Shown one piece after another: positions 1,582 to 27,640 of a stretch of 30,460 nucleotides of DNA. How positions within the stretch are numbered: position 1 is the stretch's first letter; the number at the start of each line of letters is the position of its first letter. The DNA is from a virus (lineage: Duplodnaviria; Caudoviricetes): positions 1 through 30,460 of the IMG/VR virus record IMGVR_UViG_3300048852_000107. One strand, written 5' to 3'. The notes below the pieces were generated by a model. That model searched no databases. It was not told the DNA's origin and saw nothing but the letters and a program-made list of their open reading frames with translations. The translations under genes were made by a program, and so were the position numbers.

Positions 1582-3388
1582 CGATGATCTCCATGCGCGT
1601 CTTCGGCCGCGCCTTGCCGTCCAGGGGTTCGTTGATGAGGATGTGCATGATCGCCCAGGCCAGATCGGCATGGCCGATGTCGTCGCTGCGGCTCGCCTTG
1701 AAGGTGATCGCCGCGCCCGATCGGGTGAGCGCCTTCTTGATCGACAGGAAGCTCGACTGAACGTCGATCCACCCGGCGTCGAACTCGATCCGCTGGCGGG
1801 CGAAGCTGTGCTGCGCTTTCATCACCATCGTCGCCTTCGCCTCGAGCGAATATTCGATCTTGGTAAGGCCGCGCACATTCTCGCGCTGCAGGCACTGATA
1901 GACGCCGGCGCCGACGCCGCCGGCGTCCACGCCCAGATAGGTGCAGTTGTAGCGCGTCAGGCGCGCAACGATGAACTCGGCCTGCGCCTGGAAGTCGAGC
2001 CCGCGCAGCTGGTGGCGCTCGATCAGCCGGAACTTGCCGCTCGGCCCTTCCGGCGGCAGCGCGATCACCAGCGCGGCATTGTCCCCGTCCTCGCTCTCCT
2101 GCGGGTCATAGCCCGCCCACACCGGTCGATTGCCCACCGGCTTCGGCGCCAGCAGATCCACGTCGCGCCAGTCCACCACGGCGTCCACCGTCGCGCGCTG
2201 CAGCTCGTTGAACTTGAAGGCCGACAGGCTGTCGTCGACGAACTGGCACATCAGCAGGTTGGCGAATTCGTCGGGCGCATATTCGATGCGCAGCTCGTCG
2301 ATGTCGAACAGGTCGCACCCGCGCGCCGCAGCATCCTCGATCGTCACGATCTGGCGCCAGATATTGTCCTCGCAGAGCACGCCCGCCTTCAGCCGGGCAT
2401 GGCTCACGTCGATCGTGACGCGGTTTTCCTTCTTCACCCGGCGGTTGCGGCGCTCTCCGGTCCAATAGGGGTGCGCCTGGTGCGCGACGCTCGACGGGGT
2501 GGAGAAGTAGGTCCGGCGCCAGCGCTTGTGCATCGCCATGGCGCTGGCGACCTTGTTCAGCTCTTCAAACCCATAGGTCCAGAAAAACTCGTCGAAGTAG
2601 AAATTGCCGTGGTAGCCTTGCGCGGTGCGGGCGTTGGTGCCGAGGAAGATCAGCTCGGCCGCGGGCTCCCCTTCCGGCATCGTGTCCGCGGTCACCACGA
2701 TCGGATCGCCGGTCAGCTTCACGCCCACGCGCGCCGCGAACTGGATGATGTAGCCGCGAAAGATATGCGCCTGGTTCTTGGAGGCGGACAGGAAGATTTG
2801 GTTGCCGCCGCCGCGCAGCGCGTCGAGCAGCGCCTCCCGGGCGAAATACCAGGTCGCGCCGATCTGGCGCGATTTCAGGATCATGCGGGTGCGCTGGTCC
2901 TTCGCCGCCCACCAATCCTCCTGGTAACCGAACAGCTCCTCCTCGAAGATCGCCTCGAGCTGCTCCACCTGCTGGCAAGTGAAGTGGTTCTTCTTCGCCT
3001 TCTTCTTCTCGCCGGCGTTTCGGTTTGCCACCTTCTCGTTGAGGTCGCCCTCGTGCCCGCCCGGCGCCTCGTACCGGCGCACCCGCGCGGTCGAGACCAC
3101 CGCACGCATCAGCAGGTCGATTTCCTTGAAGTCGCCGCCCGTCTTCGCATCCTTGGCGATCAGCAGGTTGAGCCGGCACTCGAGCGCGTCTTCGATCTTC
3201 GCGATCGACGGCGCATCGTCCCACTTCTCGCGGTCCTTCCACGCCTGCACGGTCGATCGGTTGAGCCCCAGCTCCCCCGCGATCTGGGTGATCCCCCACC
3301 CGCGCCAATAGAGGCTGCGCGCCTGGCGGCGCGCGTCGACCGGGATCGGCATGGTCGATGCTGGCAGGGGTTCGTCGATCGGCGTCAT
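1274..3388 (-). CDS. P: terminase ATPase subunit (P2 gpP), with a ~102 aa read-through tail over the portal gene
   Basis: N-terminal HTH (LYWRGW), LKSRQIGATWYFAREA, YFDEFFW (Walker B) and GHADLAWA motifs. Confidence 0.95.
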   Translation of the reverse strand: MTPIDEPLPASTMPIPVDARRQARSLYWRGWGITQIAGELGLNRSTVQAWKDREKWDDAPSIAKIEDALECRLNLLIAKDAKTGGDFKEIDLLMRAVVSTARVRRYEAPGGHEGDLNEKVANRNAGEKKKAKKNHFTCQQVEQLEAIFEEELFGYQEDWWAAKDQRTRMILKSRQIGATWYFAREALLDALRGGGNQIFLSASKNQAHIFRGYIIQFAARVGVKLTGDPIVVTADTMPEGEPAAELIFLGTNARTAQGYHGNFYFDEFFWTYGFEELNKVASAMAMHKRWRRTYFSTPSSVAHQAHPYWTGERRNRRVKKENRVTIDVSHARLKAGVLCEDNIWRQIVTIEDAAARGCDLFDIDELRIEYAPDEFANLLMCQFVDDSLSAFKFNELQRATVDAVVDWRDVDLLAPKPVGNRPVWAGYDPQESEDGDNAALVIALPPEGPSGKFRLIERHQLRGLDFQAQAEFIVARLTRYNCTYLGVDAGGVGAGVYQCLQRENVRGLTKIEYSLEAKATMVMKAQHSFARQRIEFDAGWIDVQSSFLSIKKALTRSGAAITFKASRSDDIGHADLAWAIMHILINEPLDGKARPKTRMEIIDGEAEDAANVAGGIGGGGAWSHRGEREHAIAGAGIQLRRSGAGAGPARADRHAGMRPQRSLVRAADSRRRPGARVPRLSAPQQRHLSQAQPAGRFVRALATA

Positions 3389-23108: not shown

Positions 23109-25499
23109 TCATTCAGGCAGAAAGCCCAATTCAAACACCTTCGGACGCAGTTTCGAGGTCAACGCAGCATAGGCGGCCTTGAATGGATCGAAGTCGGTCA
23201 GCTCGGTGTCGCTATAGGCTTCGAGCGCGCGGCGAATCTGATACCATCCGGCATCGGGGCGCCCAAGCTTGTATTCGTCGCGGATCTTGCGCGGGAAGCT
23301 GGTAGCATGGAATCGCGTCCACAATTTGCGGCCCTCGTCGAGCACTGACCGTGCCTCGGGCGAGAAGGTCATACCGGCCATGTGGCGGACCATGAAGTCG
23401 CTCTCGAACCGCCCCTTGGCGCCAACCTCGGCTTCGGTGAAGGGAATGAAGTGATTGACGAGGCTCCAGTCGCGATCGTTCCAGCGCAGCCCGTCGGCCC
23501 CGGCCGTCAGGTTCTTACCAGCGAACAGCATCCAGACGAGGCAGTCAGATTTGAACTCATCGGTCAGTGGCTGCGACGGCTGCAGGAATTGATCATTGTG
23601 ATTTTGCCAAGTGTGCGATGCCAACATGCGCACAGAAAACACGACCGCAGCTTGCCACAGGTTTGACGGACTCAGCCAGACACCGCCGCCATTGCCTCCC
23701 GTGAATATCGAAGACGTGATTAAGGTCTCTTGCCCAGCGTGTTGTAGATCATTGTTGCTGGCATATAGATACCCGAGTGCTTCATTGAGCTGCTTCTTCG
23801 GCCGCGGGTTACTCGCAACCGTCAGAGCGTTCGAAAGGGGCAGAGCCGGACCGCCCTTCGCGCTCGTTTTCGACATCCACACATTTAACAAGCACGCAGC
23901 TGGACGAACCGCGTAGGTCTTTTCGCGAATCAGCGTACCGGACCGATCGAGTACGTTAGTCGTAATGTCGGAAAGCGGCGCTCTACTACCCTGATCCCAT
24001 ACCAGAAAGCCGATCGGAAAATTGCCCTTGAGGCCGTCAAAGGCGCGGTTGTGCACCACGAAGCCGCCGAGATACTGCGCCTGCCAGATACGGCGAAAAG
24101 GTTCGAAGTTCGGCGCGTTCACATATTTGAGCGTGCTGAACATCGCGAGCTTGGCGTTTGGCAGCTCGTGACGAATGCGGACGAGAAACTGCGTGAACAG
24201 CTCTTTGCTTGCGTAACCAACATTCATTTGACGCATCCAGCCGTTGATGCGGGTTTTTTCGATGCCGACCTTGTTCTCGTCGCCCTTCGCAATCCCTGAT
24301 CCGCTTTCAGCATACGGCGGGTTGATCAGCACCAGAATCGGCTTGGCGCCCTTCCTGCCCTCTTTTGCATCAGCAATCGCTTGGCGCAGCGCCATCGGCA
24401 GCTTGTTCGACAAGCCGTAGTCGATCTCGCCAAAATCGGTGACGTCGTCGTTCAGATAGTCGTACTGAAAAATCTCCGCACCTGCGAACGCCGGGTTCGA
24501 TTTCATGATCGTCACATCGGCTTGGTCGAGCGTCGACATGAAGACGTTGCGGAGATTGCTGTGCTTGGCCTCGAGATTGCCTACGCCCGCACACATGTCC
24601 CACACCAGATAGCGGTCTTGCCAATTTTCGCCCAGCGTGGCGCGCAGCTGGTCATAAGCTTTGTCGACAATGTGCAGCGGCGTGTAATAGGCGCCCTTGA
24701 ACTTTTGCTCGTCGACCGGCAGCAGGCTGTCGCGCCGTTCGAGCAGGTAGTGGCGATGCTTCTGCTCGGGCGGGCGATGGTAGATCGCCCAGAAGTTGCG
24801 ATAGCCGCGGTCGTTCGCGAGTTCGTAGGTTTCACCGTTGAGCAGGAAGGTTGGCCCGTCCGCTGTCATGAGCAGCCGCGCGGGCAGATTGTGCATCGCC
24901 TCGTGCTCGCCGTCGTGCATAATGTCGGCGAAGAAGAGCACGGCATAATCCGCGGGCGTCCTCACGCCCAGTTCCTCACCGATCATCGCGACCCAGCGGT
25001 CGAACACCTGCCGCAGATTATCGGGCGTGATCGGCGTGCGGATAATGCGGCGTTGTTTGATCGCCTCCTTTACCGCCTTGACGAACGCCGCCTCGTCATG
25101 CGCGATCTCATATTCAACGATGTGCGTCTGGACGTAGGGAGCGATCTGCGCTCCCAGTTCCTTGCCCGCGCCCGATCCGGATTTCGGCCAGACTATGCTC
25201 TTGTCGTCGAGCAAAGGCAGGGCCTTCTCGGTCGGCATGATAGCGGCCTTGTCGCGGTCGATGACGGCAAGGAAGGCAGGGATCGGCTCGCCGCGTTTTT
25301 TCGCCGCGCGAATGTAGAACATCAATTGCGCGAACATGACGATCGGCGGTGTCGAAACCGCTTTTGCCTCGAACCAGACCTCCTGTGTCTGGATATCGAC
25401 AAGGTTCTTGGAAACGCCTTTAAGCCCCAGGGCTGAGATATAGGCGTCTTTGACGTCCTCCTCGGTGCGGGCCTTGGCGAGCGCGTGTGCCAGTGTCAT
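23109..25499 (-). CDS. fused PD-(D/E)xK nuclease plus gamma-class N6-adenine methyltransferase (type IIG-like restriction-modification protein)
   Basis: TEEDVK...VD...WFEAK, GAYYTP, WDMCAGVGNL (motif I), INPPY (motif IV), long C-terminal putative TRD; start is ATG 25499 or TTG 25526. Confidence 0.8.
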   Translation of the reverse strand: MTLAHALAKARTEEDVKDAYISALGLKGVSKNLVDIQTQEVWFEAKAVSTPPIVMFAQLMFYIRAAKKRGEPIPAFLAVIDRDKAAIMPTEKALPLLDDKSIVWPKSGSGAGKELGAQIAPYVQTHIVEYEIAHDEAAFVKAVKEAIKQRRIIRTPITPDNLRQVFDRWVAMIGEELGVRTPADYAVLFFADIMHDGEHEAMHNLPARLLMTADGPTFLLNGETYELANDRGYRNFWAIYHRPPEQKHRHYLLERRDSLLPVDEQKFKGAYYTPLHIVDKAYDQLRATLGENWQDRYLVWDMCAGVGNLEAKHSNLRNVFMSTLDQADVTIMKSNPAFAGAEIFQYDYLNDDVTDFGEIDYGLSNKLPMALRQAIADAKEGRKGAKPILVLINPPYAESGSGIAKGDENKVGIEKTRINGWMRQMNVGYASKELFTQFLVRIRHELPNAKLAMFSTLKYVNAPNFEPFRRIWQAQYLGGFVVHNRAFDGLKGNFPIGFLVWDQGSRAPLSDITTNVLDRSGTLIREKTYAVRPAACLLNVWMSKTSAKGGPALPLSNALTVASNPRPKKQLNEALGYLYASNNDLQHAGQETLITSSIFTGGNGGGVWLSPSNLWQAAVVFSVRMLASHTWQNHNDQFLQPSQPLTDEFKSDCLVWMLFAGKNLTAGADGLRWNDRDWSLVNHFIPFTEAEVGAKGRFESDFMVRHMAGMTFSPEARSVLDEGRKLWTRFHATSFPRKIRDEYKLGRPDAGWYQIRRALEAYSDTELTDFDPFKAAYAALTSKLRPKVFELGFLPE

Positions 25500-25680
25500 C
25501 GAGTATGGTGGCCCCGTTTCGCTCAAAGATAGGTTGGCAGGTATACGGCTGTTTCGGTGGTTGGCGATATCTAAGCGGACCCTAAGCTAGCCAACTCATA
25601 GCGGTCGTTCACGCGCTATCCACGAATGGCCGGTTACGGGATCGCTCGCGAGTAGAGCGAATGATCGAATGTGAGGGCGC

Positions 25681-26238
25681 TTAGATGCTCTTTGAGGCCT
25701 GAGCCGCTTCCTGCAAAAATTGGATCATCTTAGCCGACAAAGGAGTTGCCGCCCGCCGGTTCCGGCGGGCGAATTTGGCTTGAAGGCTGCTATATTCATG
25801 TTGAGCCACTTCTAGCGTGCGCCCCGCGCTGAAGAGCCGGGACCGCCGTTCGTTTCGACGATCGGGATCATCGTTCAAAACCGCGTCAATTCGGCTGTTC
25901 ACCGCATGAACCGAACTACGAATGATCGCTATAGATTCAACCATGCTCGAAGGGAGCTTTGAGATATCTAGCTCTCGAAGAACTTCGATCATCTCACTTG
26001 CGCGCGCGCCTCTCAGCGCGAACTCAGTTGGCTTTGCTGGATCGGTCAAGGCGTCTAGACGCTCAGTAACAAAGTCAACGGAGTGCCGCGCAAGACGAGC
26101 GGCGGCAACAGCCGCGCCACGTCGATCAAACCACTGTTGAAGACCAACATAAGCGAAGCCGGCACCAATTGCTGCGACAGACGCCCAAGCTTGAATTGCT
26201 GCATAGGTTTCGCCCGATCCCGACGCTCCGTAAGCCAT
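25681..26238 (-). CDS. hypothetical protein with N-terminal TM helix (185 aa)
   Basis: G-rich RBS; hydrophobic AIQAWASVAAIGAGFAYVGL followed by a helical domain; lower GC. Confidence 0.7.
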   Translation of the reverse strand: MAYGASGSGETYAAIQAWASVAAIGAGFAYVGLQQWFDRRGAAVAAARLARHSVDFVTERLDALTDPAKPTEFALRGARASEMIEVLRELDISKLPSSMVESIAIIRSSVHAVNSRIDAVLNDDPDRRNERRSRLFSAGRTLEVAQHEYSSLQAKFARRNRRAATPLSAKMIQFLQEAAQASKSI

Positions 26239-26602
26239 TCCCCCCCCTTATGGATGTGCTCGTGCTCAAAGTGACATTGGCTTAATCGGCAGCAGTTTCA
26301 CAATCCCCGAAATCCCCGGGACCGTCGGCTGCTGTCGGGATTGCCGGTGAGCTTACCTGGCAGAGTTTGGGGTGCGCAACTGCCGTTGCGCTCCAGCTGA
26401 ATGAACAGCCGGGATCGTGGGAATACGGCCGTAAAGCGGCCTGGCTGCCGTCCTCCCAGAAGCGGAGGCAGATTAGTCGCTCAGCAAACGCAGCTTCTAG
26501 GATCCCGCGAGATTGCGCTGTACGGCGGGAATGCGGGTGAAAGCCTCCGCTCGGCTACTACTGCAGAGCCCATCTTCCCATGTTGGATTCTGTCCGCGAC
26601 AA

Positions 26603-26627
26603 GAACGGATCAGGAACGATTCGGAAC
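26603..26627. promoter_or_regulatory. alphaproteobacterial LexA (SOS)-type box
   Basis: GAAC-GGATCAG-GAAC (N7) at 26603-26617 plus a third GAAC at 26624; intergenic. Confidence 0.65.
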
Positions 26628-26637
26628 CAGCGAAAGA

Positions 26638-26928
26638 GTGAGCGAACCGGTATATCGGCTGACCCCAGGGTGCGAGCTGGCGTGCCCGCGATGCGAGATT
26701 ATGTGCGCGGTGCTCGCGGCTGCTCGGGATCAGTACTGGCGCGATCTCGAGGAGCTTCATCGTGTTCGGGCGCTTCGTCCCTCGCGGGTGCAGGCATCAG
26801 ATCTTGAAGCTGCGAAAGACCGGCTGGCAGCAGCCGAGCGAGAGTTCGCGCGAGTTCGTCCACCGGCTTGGATAGATCCAACGTTCGAAGCAGACCCTCG
26901 TACATCCGCGCCAGTGCAGCTTCACTAG
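26638..26928 (+). CDS. Cys-rich hypothetical protein antisense to the repressor; candidate SOS-induced antirepressor (96 aa)
   Basis: GTG 20 nt after the LexA-type box; CELACPRCEIMC followed by amphipathic helices. Confidence 0.5.
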   Translation: MSEPVYRLTPGCELACPRCEIMCAVLAAARDQYWRDLEELHRVRALRPSRVQASDLEAAKDRLAAAEREFARVRPPAWIDPTFEADPRTSAPVQLH

Positions 26929-27247
26929 GAAGAGCGACTTGCATCGTGACCAATTGAAGCGACGGCGCTTGGTCCGACGCGACTGGCGTGACAGTTTGTC
27001 CTCGCGCGGCCCTTTCGAGCTGTTCGGCTCGCTCCACAGCGTTCCTTACGAACCTGATCCAGCGGGGTACCGACTTGGTGTGACCCTTCTCGAAATTTGA
27101 CACCGCTTGTTGCGTTAACGTCATGTCATCGCCGGCGCGCGACGCCTCAAACGTGGCTCGCTTCGCTACCTCAGCCGCGCTCCACCCGAGCCGCCGTCGT
27201 GTTTCAATTAGCCAGTCAATTTGGTCGAGTACGTTGTGCACCGGCAC
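26699..27247 (-). CDS. CI-like XRE HTH repressor without an S24 peptidase domain
   Basis: RRRLGWSAAEVA...LTQQAVSNFEKG HTH; divergent from the cro-like gene. Confidence 0.82.
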   Translation of the reverse strand: MPVHNVLDQIDWLIETRRRLGWSAAEVAKRATFEASRAGDDMTLTQQAVSNFEKGHTKSVPRWIRFVRNAVERAEQLERAARGQTVTPVASDQAPSLQLVTMQVALPSEAALARMYEGLLRTLDLSKPVDELARTLARLLPAGLSQLQDLMPAPARDEAPEHDEAPRDRASTDPEQPRAPRT

Positions 27248-27249
27248 AC

Positions 27250-27314
27250 GCTACAAACTTTTTTGTAGCCGCAAGCTCACAAAATGCTTGTGACTTCTTG
27301 TTGTTTTTTGTAGC
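27250..27314. promoter_or_regulatory. operator region between cI and cro
   Basis: GCTACAAA-CTTT-TTTGTAGC (27250-27269), TCACAA-N5-TTGTGA (27277-27293), half-site TTTTGTAGC ending at 27314; AT-rich. Confidence 0.78.
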
Positions 27315-27322
27315 TGACGGTT

Positions 27323-27640
27323 ATGGATACCGCTTTTGCACATCAAGCGTTCCGCGACGCAGTCACCGCCGCGAAGTCGCAGGGCGCCTTTGCGCGCGGC
27401 GTGGGCACCTCGCAGCAGAGAATATCGTATCTCCTGAAGCACCACCGGCTTCTGCCCGGCGAACTCGTGCTCCGTGCCGAAGATCTCACCGGCGTGTCGC
27501 GCCATCGGCTCCGTCCAGACCTTTACCCGCAGGACGACGCTGCTTCTGTCCCCCTTGCCCATGGCAGCGTCGTAGCCCCCGGCGCTCCGATCGTCGCGTG
27601 CGATCAGAGCGCCGCTTCGCACTCCGGAGCGGACGCATGA
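27323..27640 (+). CDS. Cro/YdaS-family HTH regulator
   Basis: SQGAFARGVGTSQQRIS and TGVSRHRLRPDLYP motifs. Confidence 0.85.
   Translation: MDTAFAHQAFRDAVTAAKSQGAFARGVGTSQQRISYLLKHHRLLPGELVLRAEDLTGVSRHRLRPDLYPQDDAASVPLAHGSVVAPGAPIVACDQSAASHSGADA

Follow-up and report, generated by a model that had tools for sequence, protein, structure and literature searches.

What could induce a temperate phage whose repressor is incapable of self-cleavage? The question is raised by the immunity region of the window, i.e., the whole stretch of DNA analysed here, a single viral record of 30.5 kb (30,460 nucleotides). It carries markers of a P2-like temperate phage: a portal protein, tail gene D, an Ogr activator and an integrase (phrog_68, phrog_52/PF05954, PF04606, PF00589). 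The repressor has a weak helix-turn-helix (HTH) match (HTH_3, E 0.025) and no S24 match, and a four-Cys reading frame runs into its gene from the opposite strand, beginning with a GTG 20 nt past the end of a LexA-type box (Table 1). The initial annotation had proposed that DNA damage would produce both an antisense RNA against the repressor mRNA and a metal-binding antirepressor. Its coordinates for the box, the GTG, the frame and the 230-nt overlap (26699-26928) are all correct.

Table 1. Features of the immunity region and its surroundings, with positions in the window
Feature	Position	Strand	Basis or remark
Cys-gene promoter, putative, sigma70-type	26575-26603	+	Suggested by a by-eye reading of 51 box-anchored loci
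LexA-type box, GAAC-N7-GAAC (reads GTTC-N7-GTTC on the other strand)	26603-26617	+	Sequence match; same motif at host recA/lexA
GANTC site immediately 3' of the box	26618-26622	.	In 37/51 loci GANTC falls within 35 nt on the 3' side of the box, versus 5.5 in shuffles
Four-Cys gene, 96 aa, candidate antirepressor	26638-26928	+	Conservation, stop depletion, omega, AlphaFold model
Unconstrained repressor tail, about 30 aa, over antisense helix 1	26699-26791	-	Omega 1.26 in the repressor frame versus 0.33 in the antisense frame
Conserved module at the repressor C-terminus (residues ~100-152), predicted to form two helices	26792-26950	-	Omega 0.22; its second helix and antisense helix 2 share coding DNA
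XRE-type HTH repressor, 182 aa, no S24 domain, divergent from the cro-like gene	26699-27247	-	Repressor role suggested by the cI-cro position
cro-like HTH gene, opens the rightward early operon	27323-27640	+	phrog_35 E 1e-12; Pfam YdaS E 3.6e-8
Ogr/Delta-type late activator, P2-like phage context	28128-28442	+	PF04606 E 3.9e-14

Low-GC cargo on the minus strand separates tail gene D from the switch, in a slot whose gene content varies from relative to relative. It consists of an 805-aa frame (23109-25526) with an NPPY motif, methyltransferase-like by eye and with no Pfam or PHROG match, and a 185-aa frame (25681-26238) with a hydrophobic N-terminus. Candidate operators lie in the interval between the repressor and cro-like genes (27247-27312): a palindrome, GCTACAAA-n-TTTGTAGC, and additional copies of TTGTAG.

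The case for box and gene rests on relatives, because one box per 30 kb is the chance level (1 match in the window versus 0.65 expected; 53 of 100 shuffles reach it). Likewise, the window alone could not prove the gene, since an antisense frame is open by chance at about 28% of single loci. A repressor search returned 37 homologous proteins, and repressor-based locus searches gave 57 loci, of which those with names belong to Sphingomonas or Sphingomonadaceae. Searches with antisense alignments yielded 35 viral loci and matches in 27 of 401 genomes of the family. The final set holds 78 distinct loci including the window, 36 of them picked via the repressor and independent of the antisense gene; two loci at contig ends (L050, L057), copies of at least 97% identity and 11 host recA/lexA loci were left out before counting. 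The loci are related, forming 50 clusters at 70% identity (30 of them boxed), so locus counts overstate independence. For dN/dS, 66 loci with a recognisable anchor provided 22 disjoint pairs, and the locus tree was a quick tree of few columns. Used as a single-sequence query, the Cys protein gave no match in a set of 74 candidates; profiles alone succeeded, and a profile search retrieved 74 proteins, including stand-alone forms of 60-80 aa. A class-wide sample, with 12 candidates scored per genome, gave a match in 1 of 401, the centre genome only. The module or the Cys gene is present in about 6-7% of the 401 sampled Sphingomonadaceae genomes.

These relatives show that the 96-codon frame, which runs over the 3' end of the repressor, is a real gene under selection. 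Not one stop interrupts the antisense frame over the 2,646 overlap codons of the 36 loci picked via the repressor, where synonymous resampling predicts 41.8; applied to the HTH part as a control, this test counted 107 versus 110.6 expected. The four Cys residues are invariant (36/36 repressor-chosen loci, 78/78 loci, 79 sequences); co-conservation of frame and Cys with the repressor was a check that the initial annotation had proposed. Codons TGC and TGT both occur at each of the four positions. The start codon, of three kinds (ATG 14, GTG 8, TTG 6), is exactly 11 codons ahead of the first Cys in 28 of 36 loci, and 7-13 codons ahead in 75 of 78. The 18 codons outside the overlap have an omega of 0.15 (22 disjoint pairs), i.e., they are under purifying selection. 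At an invariant Pro of the repressor, CCT, which makes the antisense stop, is used in 29/36 loci versus 46/243 other Pro codons. Natural controls come from four small AT-rich genomes (nine loci), in which the module is kept, the tail is gone, the box is absent and stops crowd the antisense frame. Stops in this frame were what the initial annotation had named as telling against it, and the 36 repressor-chosen loci have none in the overlap.

Could the frame nevertheless merely shadow the repressor gene, with the box a coincidence? The chance-level box count in the window, the high omega of the last 42 antisense codons and the lack of a Pfam or PHROG family would all fit a shadow. Such a reading conflicts with the selection outside the overlap, with the mixed Cys codons and three start kinds at one position, with the filling of the frame by stops where the gene is absent and with the existence of stand-alone homologues. 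It is refuted at the sequence level, and we give it hardly any credence.

The start itself has some irregularities. Its Shine-Dalgarno sequence is weak in the window (-3.5 kcal/mol), and two loci (L048, L049) have a box and a strong GGAGG with ATG, GTG and TTG absent near the usual start; a non-standard start is possible there. A 175-aa upstream extension from ATG 26401 was rejected as not conserved. In four soil metatranscriptomes, short exact pieces of the locus occur in unstranded contigs of depth 2-12, one of them within the overlap (26752-26903), from which strand and level are unreadable.

The Cys motif, C12-x3-C16-x2-C19-x3-C23 (CxxxCxxCxxxC; 26671-26706), lies nearly entirely outside the overlap, and its four Cys probably bind a metal. 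AlphaFold (mean pLDDT 75) predicts helices at residues 17-46 and 53-73, forming a helical hairpin after the Cys knot. The C-terminal residue is His in the window, in 43 of the 78 loci and in several stand-alone forms. None of the 79 members matches a PHROG family; Pfam gave nothing above cut-off (DUF6510 and DUF6158 matches are weak and sub-threshold), and Rfam gave 0 matches. Foldseek found no PDB match at E 0.001, PDB sequence profiles reached at best E 0.007 with generic helices (neither giving a structural match for a Zn or Fe-S site), and the ESM Atlas search (best 0.75) returned no family explaining the protein. Homology to known antirepressors was not found in PHROG, Pfam or PDB. Two of 10 protein clusters looked up are named, both 'hypothetical'. 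The invariant Cys and the frequent terminal His would also suit a protein that triggers destruction of the repressor, as a protease adaptor or by metal-dependent cleavage, instead of blocking its oligomerisation. As no protease family or fold was matched and the model is a plain helical hairpin, we consider this very improbable.

Short stand-alone four-Cys homologues, many with a terminal His, were observed at L121 (1447-1662) and L122 (1441-1659) and as proteins P0072, P0081, P0084, P0088, P0098, P0101 and P0105; a second group has an N-terminal extension. The L121 homologue lies opposite what we take to be a small Arc-like regulator. Since L121, L122, P0088, P0098 and P0101 are free of repressor overlap and box, the Cys domain is also used outside the cassette.

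Within the overlap, the two genes are staggered: antisense helix 1 runs over the free repressor tail, and antisense helix 2 (residues 53-73) lies on helix 2 of the module (residues 132-152). At module helix 2, fourfold-degenerate sites of the repressor differ in 39/180 cases versus 274/516 in the HTH part (same 14 pairs, p 1e-13), which is the reduced synonymous variation that the initial annotation had proposed to look for; module helix 1 has a weak effect (37/91 differ, p 0.03). Synonymous divergence is alike on the two flanks (0.585 and 0.614); recent recombination therefore fails to account for the reduction. The core of the overlap is dual-coded, helix on helix. The earlier impression that both frames look protein-like stands elsewhere and fails in two places: the last ~30 residues of the repressor are unconstrained, and the last 42 antisense codons, with a joint omega of 1.74, mostly follow the repressor, whose frame has 0.22 in the module.

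The box is co-conserved with the gene, as had been proposed. An exact GAAC-N7-GAAC occurs 20-45 nt upstream of the reference start in 26/36 and 50/78 loci, with a background of 0.0004-0.0006 per such window; it is reversed at the same place in three more loci (L112, L125, L182), has one mismatch in two and stands at position -53 in one. The third GAAC of the initial annotation (26624-26627) is present in the window and recurs in 2/51 boxed loci, i.e., it is not conserved. Homologues without a box, which that annotation had counted as adverse, do exist: most loci keep the box, and about 20 overlapped loci (about a quarter), mostly one lineage in the quick tree, have none near the gene. In these box-less loci the Cys gene is kept and selection on it is alike (omega 0.14 across 6 pairs). 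In Sphingomonas genomes GTTC-N7-GTTC lies upstream of recA (5/5) and lexA (5/5), and a second, weak LexA-like match lacks the motif. The motif is the Caulobacter consensus, according to the accessible part of a preprint (bioRxiv 10.1101/2025.01.26.634973).

The box abuts a putative promoter with a -35-like TTCCCA (26575-26580), a 17-nt spacer containing TGTTGGA (26581-26587) and a -10-like GACAAG. The motif TCC[TA]ACA/TGT[AT]GGA was found 5' of the box in 44/51 loci versus 2.0 in shuffles, the pattern having been picked post hoc from the same data; by itself it retrieved one new gene copy (L158). Its identification as the Caulobacter RogA site GGAA-N4-TTCC was rejected, as the full form here is GGAA-N2-TTCC. 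A consensus promoter and terminator scan gave 0 hits. GANTC, which we take to be the CcrM methylation motif, clusters between box and start codon, and coupling to CcrM methylation is possible. In a box-less sub-lineage (L082, L084, L087, L089), a LuxR/GerE-type HTH gene (Pfam match in L087) stands head-to-head with the Cys gene, 15-18 nt upstream, and is a candidate for an SOS-independent input. At L053 the sole box precedes a divergent umuDC-like pair (S24 and IMS families), 159 nt upstream of the Cys gene, and may serve both directions. Host genomes G001, G002, G004 and G005 (L134:1468-1514; L135:1501-1545; L136:605-649; L153; L154) have a chromosomal S24-type repressor divergent from a cro-like gene of about 60 aa. 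The promoter of this Sphingomonas pair is built alike, with TAGGAWWWWTCCTA or AGTWGGA followed by the LexA box, and the repressor of the pair might act also on the prophage promoter.

The putative promoter is directed into the repressor gene, and no terminator-like site was found in 26200-27400. Both would suit induction in cis, in which the LexA-controlled transcript would silence the repressor gene, either by pairing with its mRNA or through colliding polymerases, while the protein would be secondary. The selection acts at the protein level, however, and one locus (L119) retains box and gene without overlap. In Bacillus AimX systems, moreover, antisense RNA looked inconsequential, as far as the available portion of that preprint goes (bioRxiv 10.1101/2025.11.23.689978). 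We therefore judge induction in cis improbable, and the antisense-RNA arm of the initial annotation is weakened by the phi106 system described in the same preprint.

The remaining evidence concerns the partner of the Cys protein. That the repressor is non-cleavable, as initially annotated, agrees with its relatives: among the best five families listed for each of 74 overlapped repressors, S24 appears in 0 and an HTH family in 67. The 37 homologues have N-terminal HTH domains of several unrelated groups, and the C-terminal module is common to all except the S24-bearing P0034; it occupies the place where the S24 protease would be and is probably the oligomerisation domain of the repressor. In 10 of 22 pairs, HTH identity is at most 40% while the modules are 65-100% identical, from which it follows that the unit of box, gene and module moves between HTH domains and is reused on unrelated ones. 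Around P0034-related S24 repressors, 12 viral loci have neither the Cys gene (0/12) nor the box (0/12) within 1.2 kb of the repressor end; these control loci had 1.5-kb flanks, and half of them match in the S24 part only. Of the 401 family genomes, 25 have a module match: 19 with the overlap, 1 split, the 4 gene-less small genomes and 1 that looks spurious. Several genomes have a Cys-gene match without a module match, representing stand-alone forms or very diverged modules. In the split locus (L119), another gene stands between the boxed Cys gene (1453-1743) and the module-bearing repressor (2366-3151), and the antisense frame is not open beneath the module.

Other module-bearing proteins were observed. 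The C-terminus of the L081 repressor has the module duplicated in tandem, and nine loci (L172, L173, L175, L176, L184-L188; genomes G037, G141, G221 and G285) encode XRE regulators with the module, some in tandem, which look like domesticated repressors. Mimicry of the SinI/SinR style was rejected, sequence support being absent (module versus Cys protein, hhalign probability 0.3%). A complex prediction of module, Cys protein and Zn scored 0.38 versus 0.24 for a control, a result that speaks neither for nor against binding, with alignments drawn from the same DNA, so that covariation is mechanically coupled.

We favor the reading, with a probability of roughly 0.6, that the four-Cys protein is a LexA-controlled antirepressor that inactivates the repressor by acting on its C-terminal module, which the opposite strand encodes. 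From sequence, we infer its functional steps (LexA binding, damage induction, metal binding and antirepressor activity) as follows. In the lysogen, host LexA would occupy the box and repress the Cys gene. DNA damage would remove LexA and release the gene, whose product, probably metal-loaded, would bind the repressor module. The cro-side promoter would thereby be freed and lytic growth would start. Convergent transcription may contribute interference and would not be required.

The Cys protein could instead be an SOS-induced effector of some other target, such as a host protein, the repressor of another prophage or an activated promoter, with the overlap reflecting compaction and the repressor being relieved otherwise. 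Stand-alone homologues free of overlap, the conserved box-less lineage, modules without the gene, the split arrangement and the dissimilarity to known antirepressors are compatible with this, and we regard it as unlikely while giving it appreciable weight. What speaks for the repressor as target is that gene and box are missing beside the 12 S24 repressors and accompany the module when the HTH is exchanged, and that even in the split locus the un-overlapped boxed gene lies about 0.6 kb from a module-bearing repressor.

If the Cys protein is an antirepressor of the module, antirepressor and target would travel as one cassette because they share DNA, and this cassette would render any HTH repressor SOS-inducible. 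A broader proposal, which we hold tentatively and consider somewhat less than an even bet, is a portable SOS-induction cassette of about 350 bp, with antirepressor and attacked repressor domain encoded helix-on-helix on opposite strands, that can be plugged in behind any HTH in place of S24. In this proposal, signals from LexA, from a second palindromic operator and from GANTC methylation would also converge on the promoter, and LexA would have been exchanged for another input in one lineage. If so, lock and key would be inseparable by recombination. The antirepressor reading names a testable trigger for widespread Sphingomonadaceae prophages with repressors incapable of self-cleavage, in which the gene is usually missed by annotation. 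As a natural instance of an extended antisense overlap selected on both strands, the locus is also unusually clean, with un-overlapped and gene-less copies as controls. Should the two products bind, they would be interacting partners from complementary strands, which bears on how overlaps tie co-evolving pairs to each other.

How does this arrangement compare with known systems? Auto-cleaving S24 CI repressors of the lambda/P22 type share an XRE HTH followed by a C-terminal domain, and a related HTH is fused to S24 in P0034; here, in place of S24, there is a module of about 50 residues with an overlapping antisense gene. Coliphage 186 is P2-related. Its Tum protein, like GfoA/GfhA of Salmonella Gifsy and AntC of N15, is a LexA-repressed small protein that binds and inactivates a non-cleavable repressor, in the accessible text of Lemire et al. 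(PMC3121763). A host-type LexA box at the promoter of the small gene and a repressor without an auto-cleavage domain are features in common, whereas sequence homology to the Tum and GfoA families is absent in PHROG and Pfam, and the gene lies inside the immunity region here and outside it there. Literature searches, with most subscription papers outside their scope, returned nothing on the four-Cys family or the sphingomonad case; the overlapping exclusion genes of PMC9936078, as far as its accessible part describes them, are not comparable.

The initial annotation had known of no such arrangement. A precedent exists, however, in Bacillus phage phi106, whose 29-aa aimX lies just 3' of a LexA site and overlaps the end of the S24-less aimC antisense by 30 bp; AimX binding was modelled at AimC's C-terminal domain, and the antisense RNA was most likely inconsequential (Kabel et al., bioRxiv 10.1101/2025.11.23.689978, in the part available). 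In the same part of that source, AimX-AimC of extended arbitrium resembles our locus in its short HTH repressor without an auto-cleavage domain, its cI-cro-like pair, its small convergent antirepressor ORF next to a LexA site and overlapping the repressor end antisense (the antirepressor role here being a candidate one), its many members without a LexA site, and its antirepressor, a helical protein whose model sits on the oligomerisation domain at the C-terminus. Both the convergent small ORF overlapping the repressor end and the divergent cro-like gene of that layout are present in the window. By inspection, without profiles, no arbitrium genes were noticed in the immunity region, and upstream of the small ORF, where aimR-aimP was not found, the window has unrelated cargo and tail gene D, varying among loci; the box here is alphaproteobacterial. 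AimX, as described in the available part, is also controlled by AimR-AimP, whereas the protein described here has 96 aa and four Cys, and its 230-nt overlap extends over most of the module. New are thus the protein family, the alphaproteobacterial host and the 230-nt dual-coded portable cassette, with the reservation that the supplementary figures of Kabel et al., beyond the part available, may show longer overlaps; the logic is already known from 186 Tum and Gifsy. The conserved gene and unit are real and well supported, and they are best read as a variant of LexA-controlled antirepression whose overlap is unusually deep and mutually constrained.
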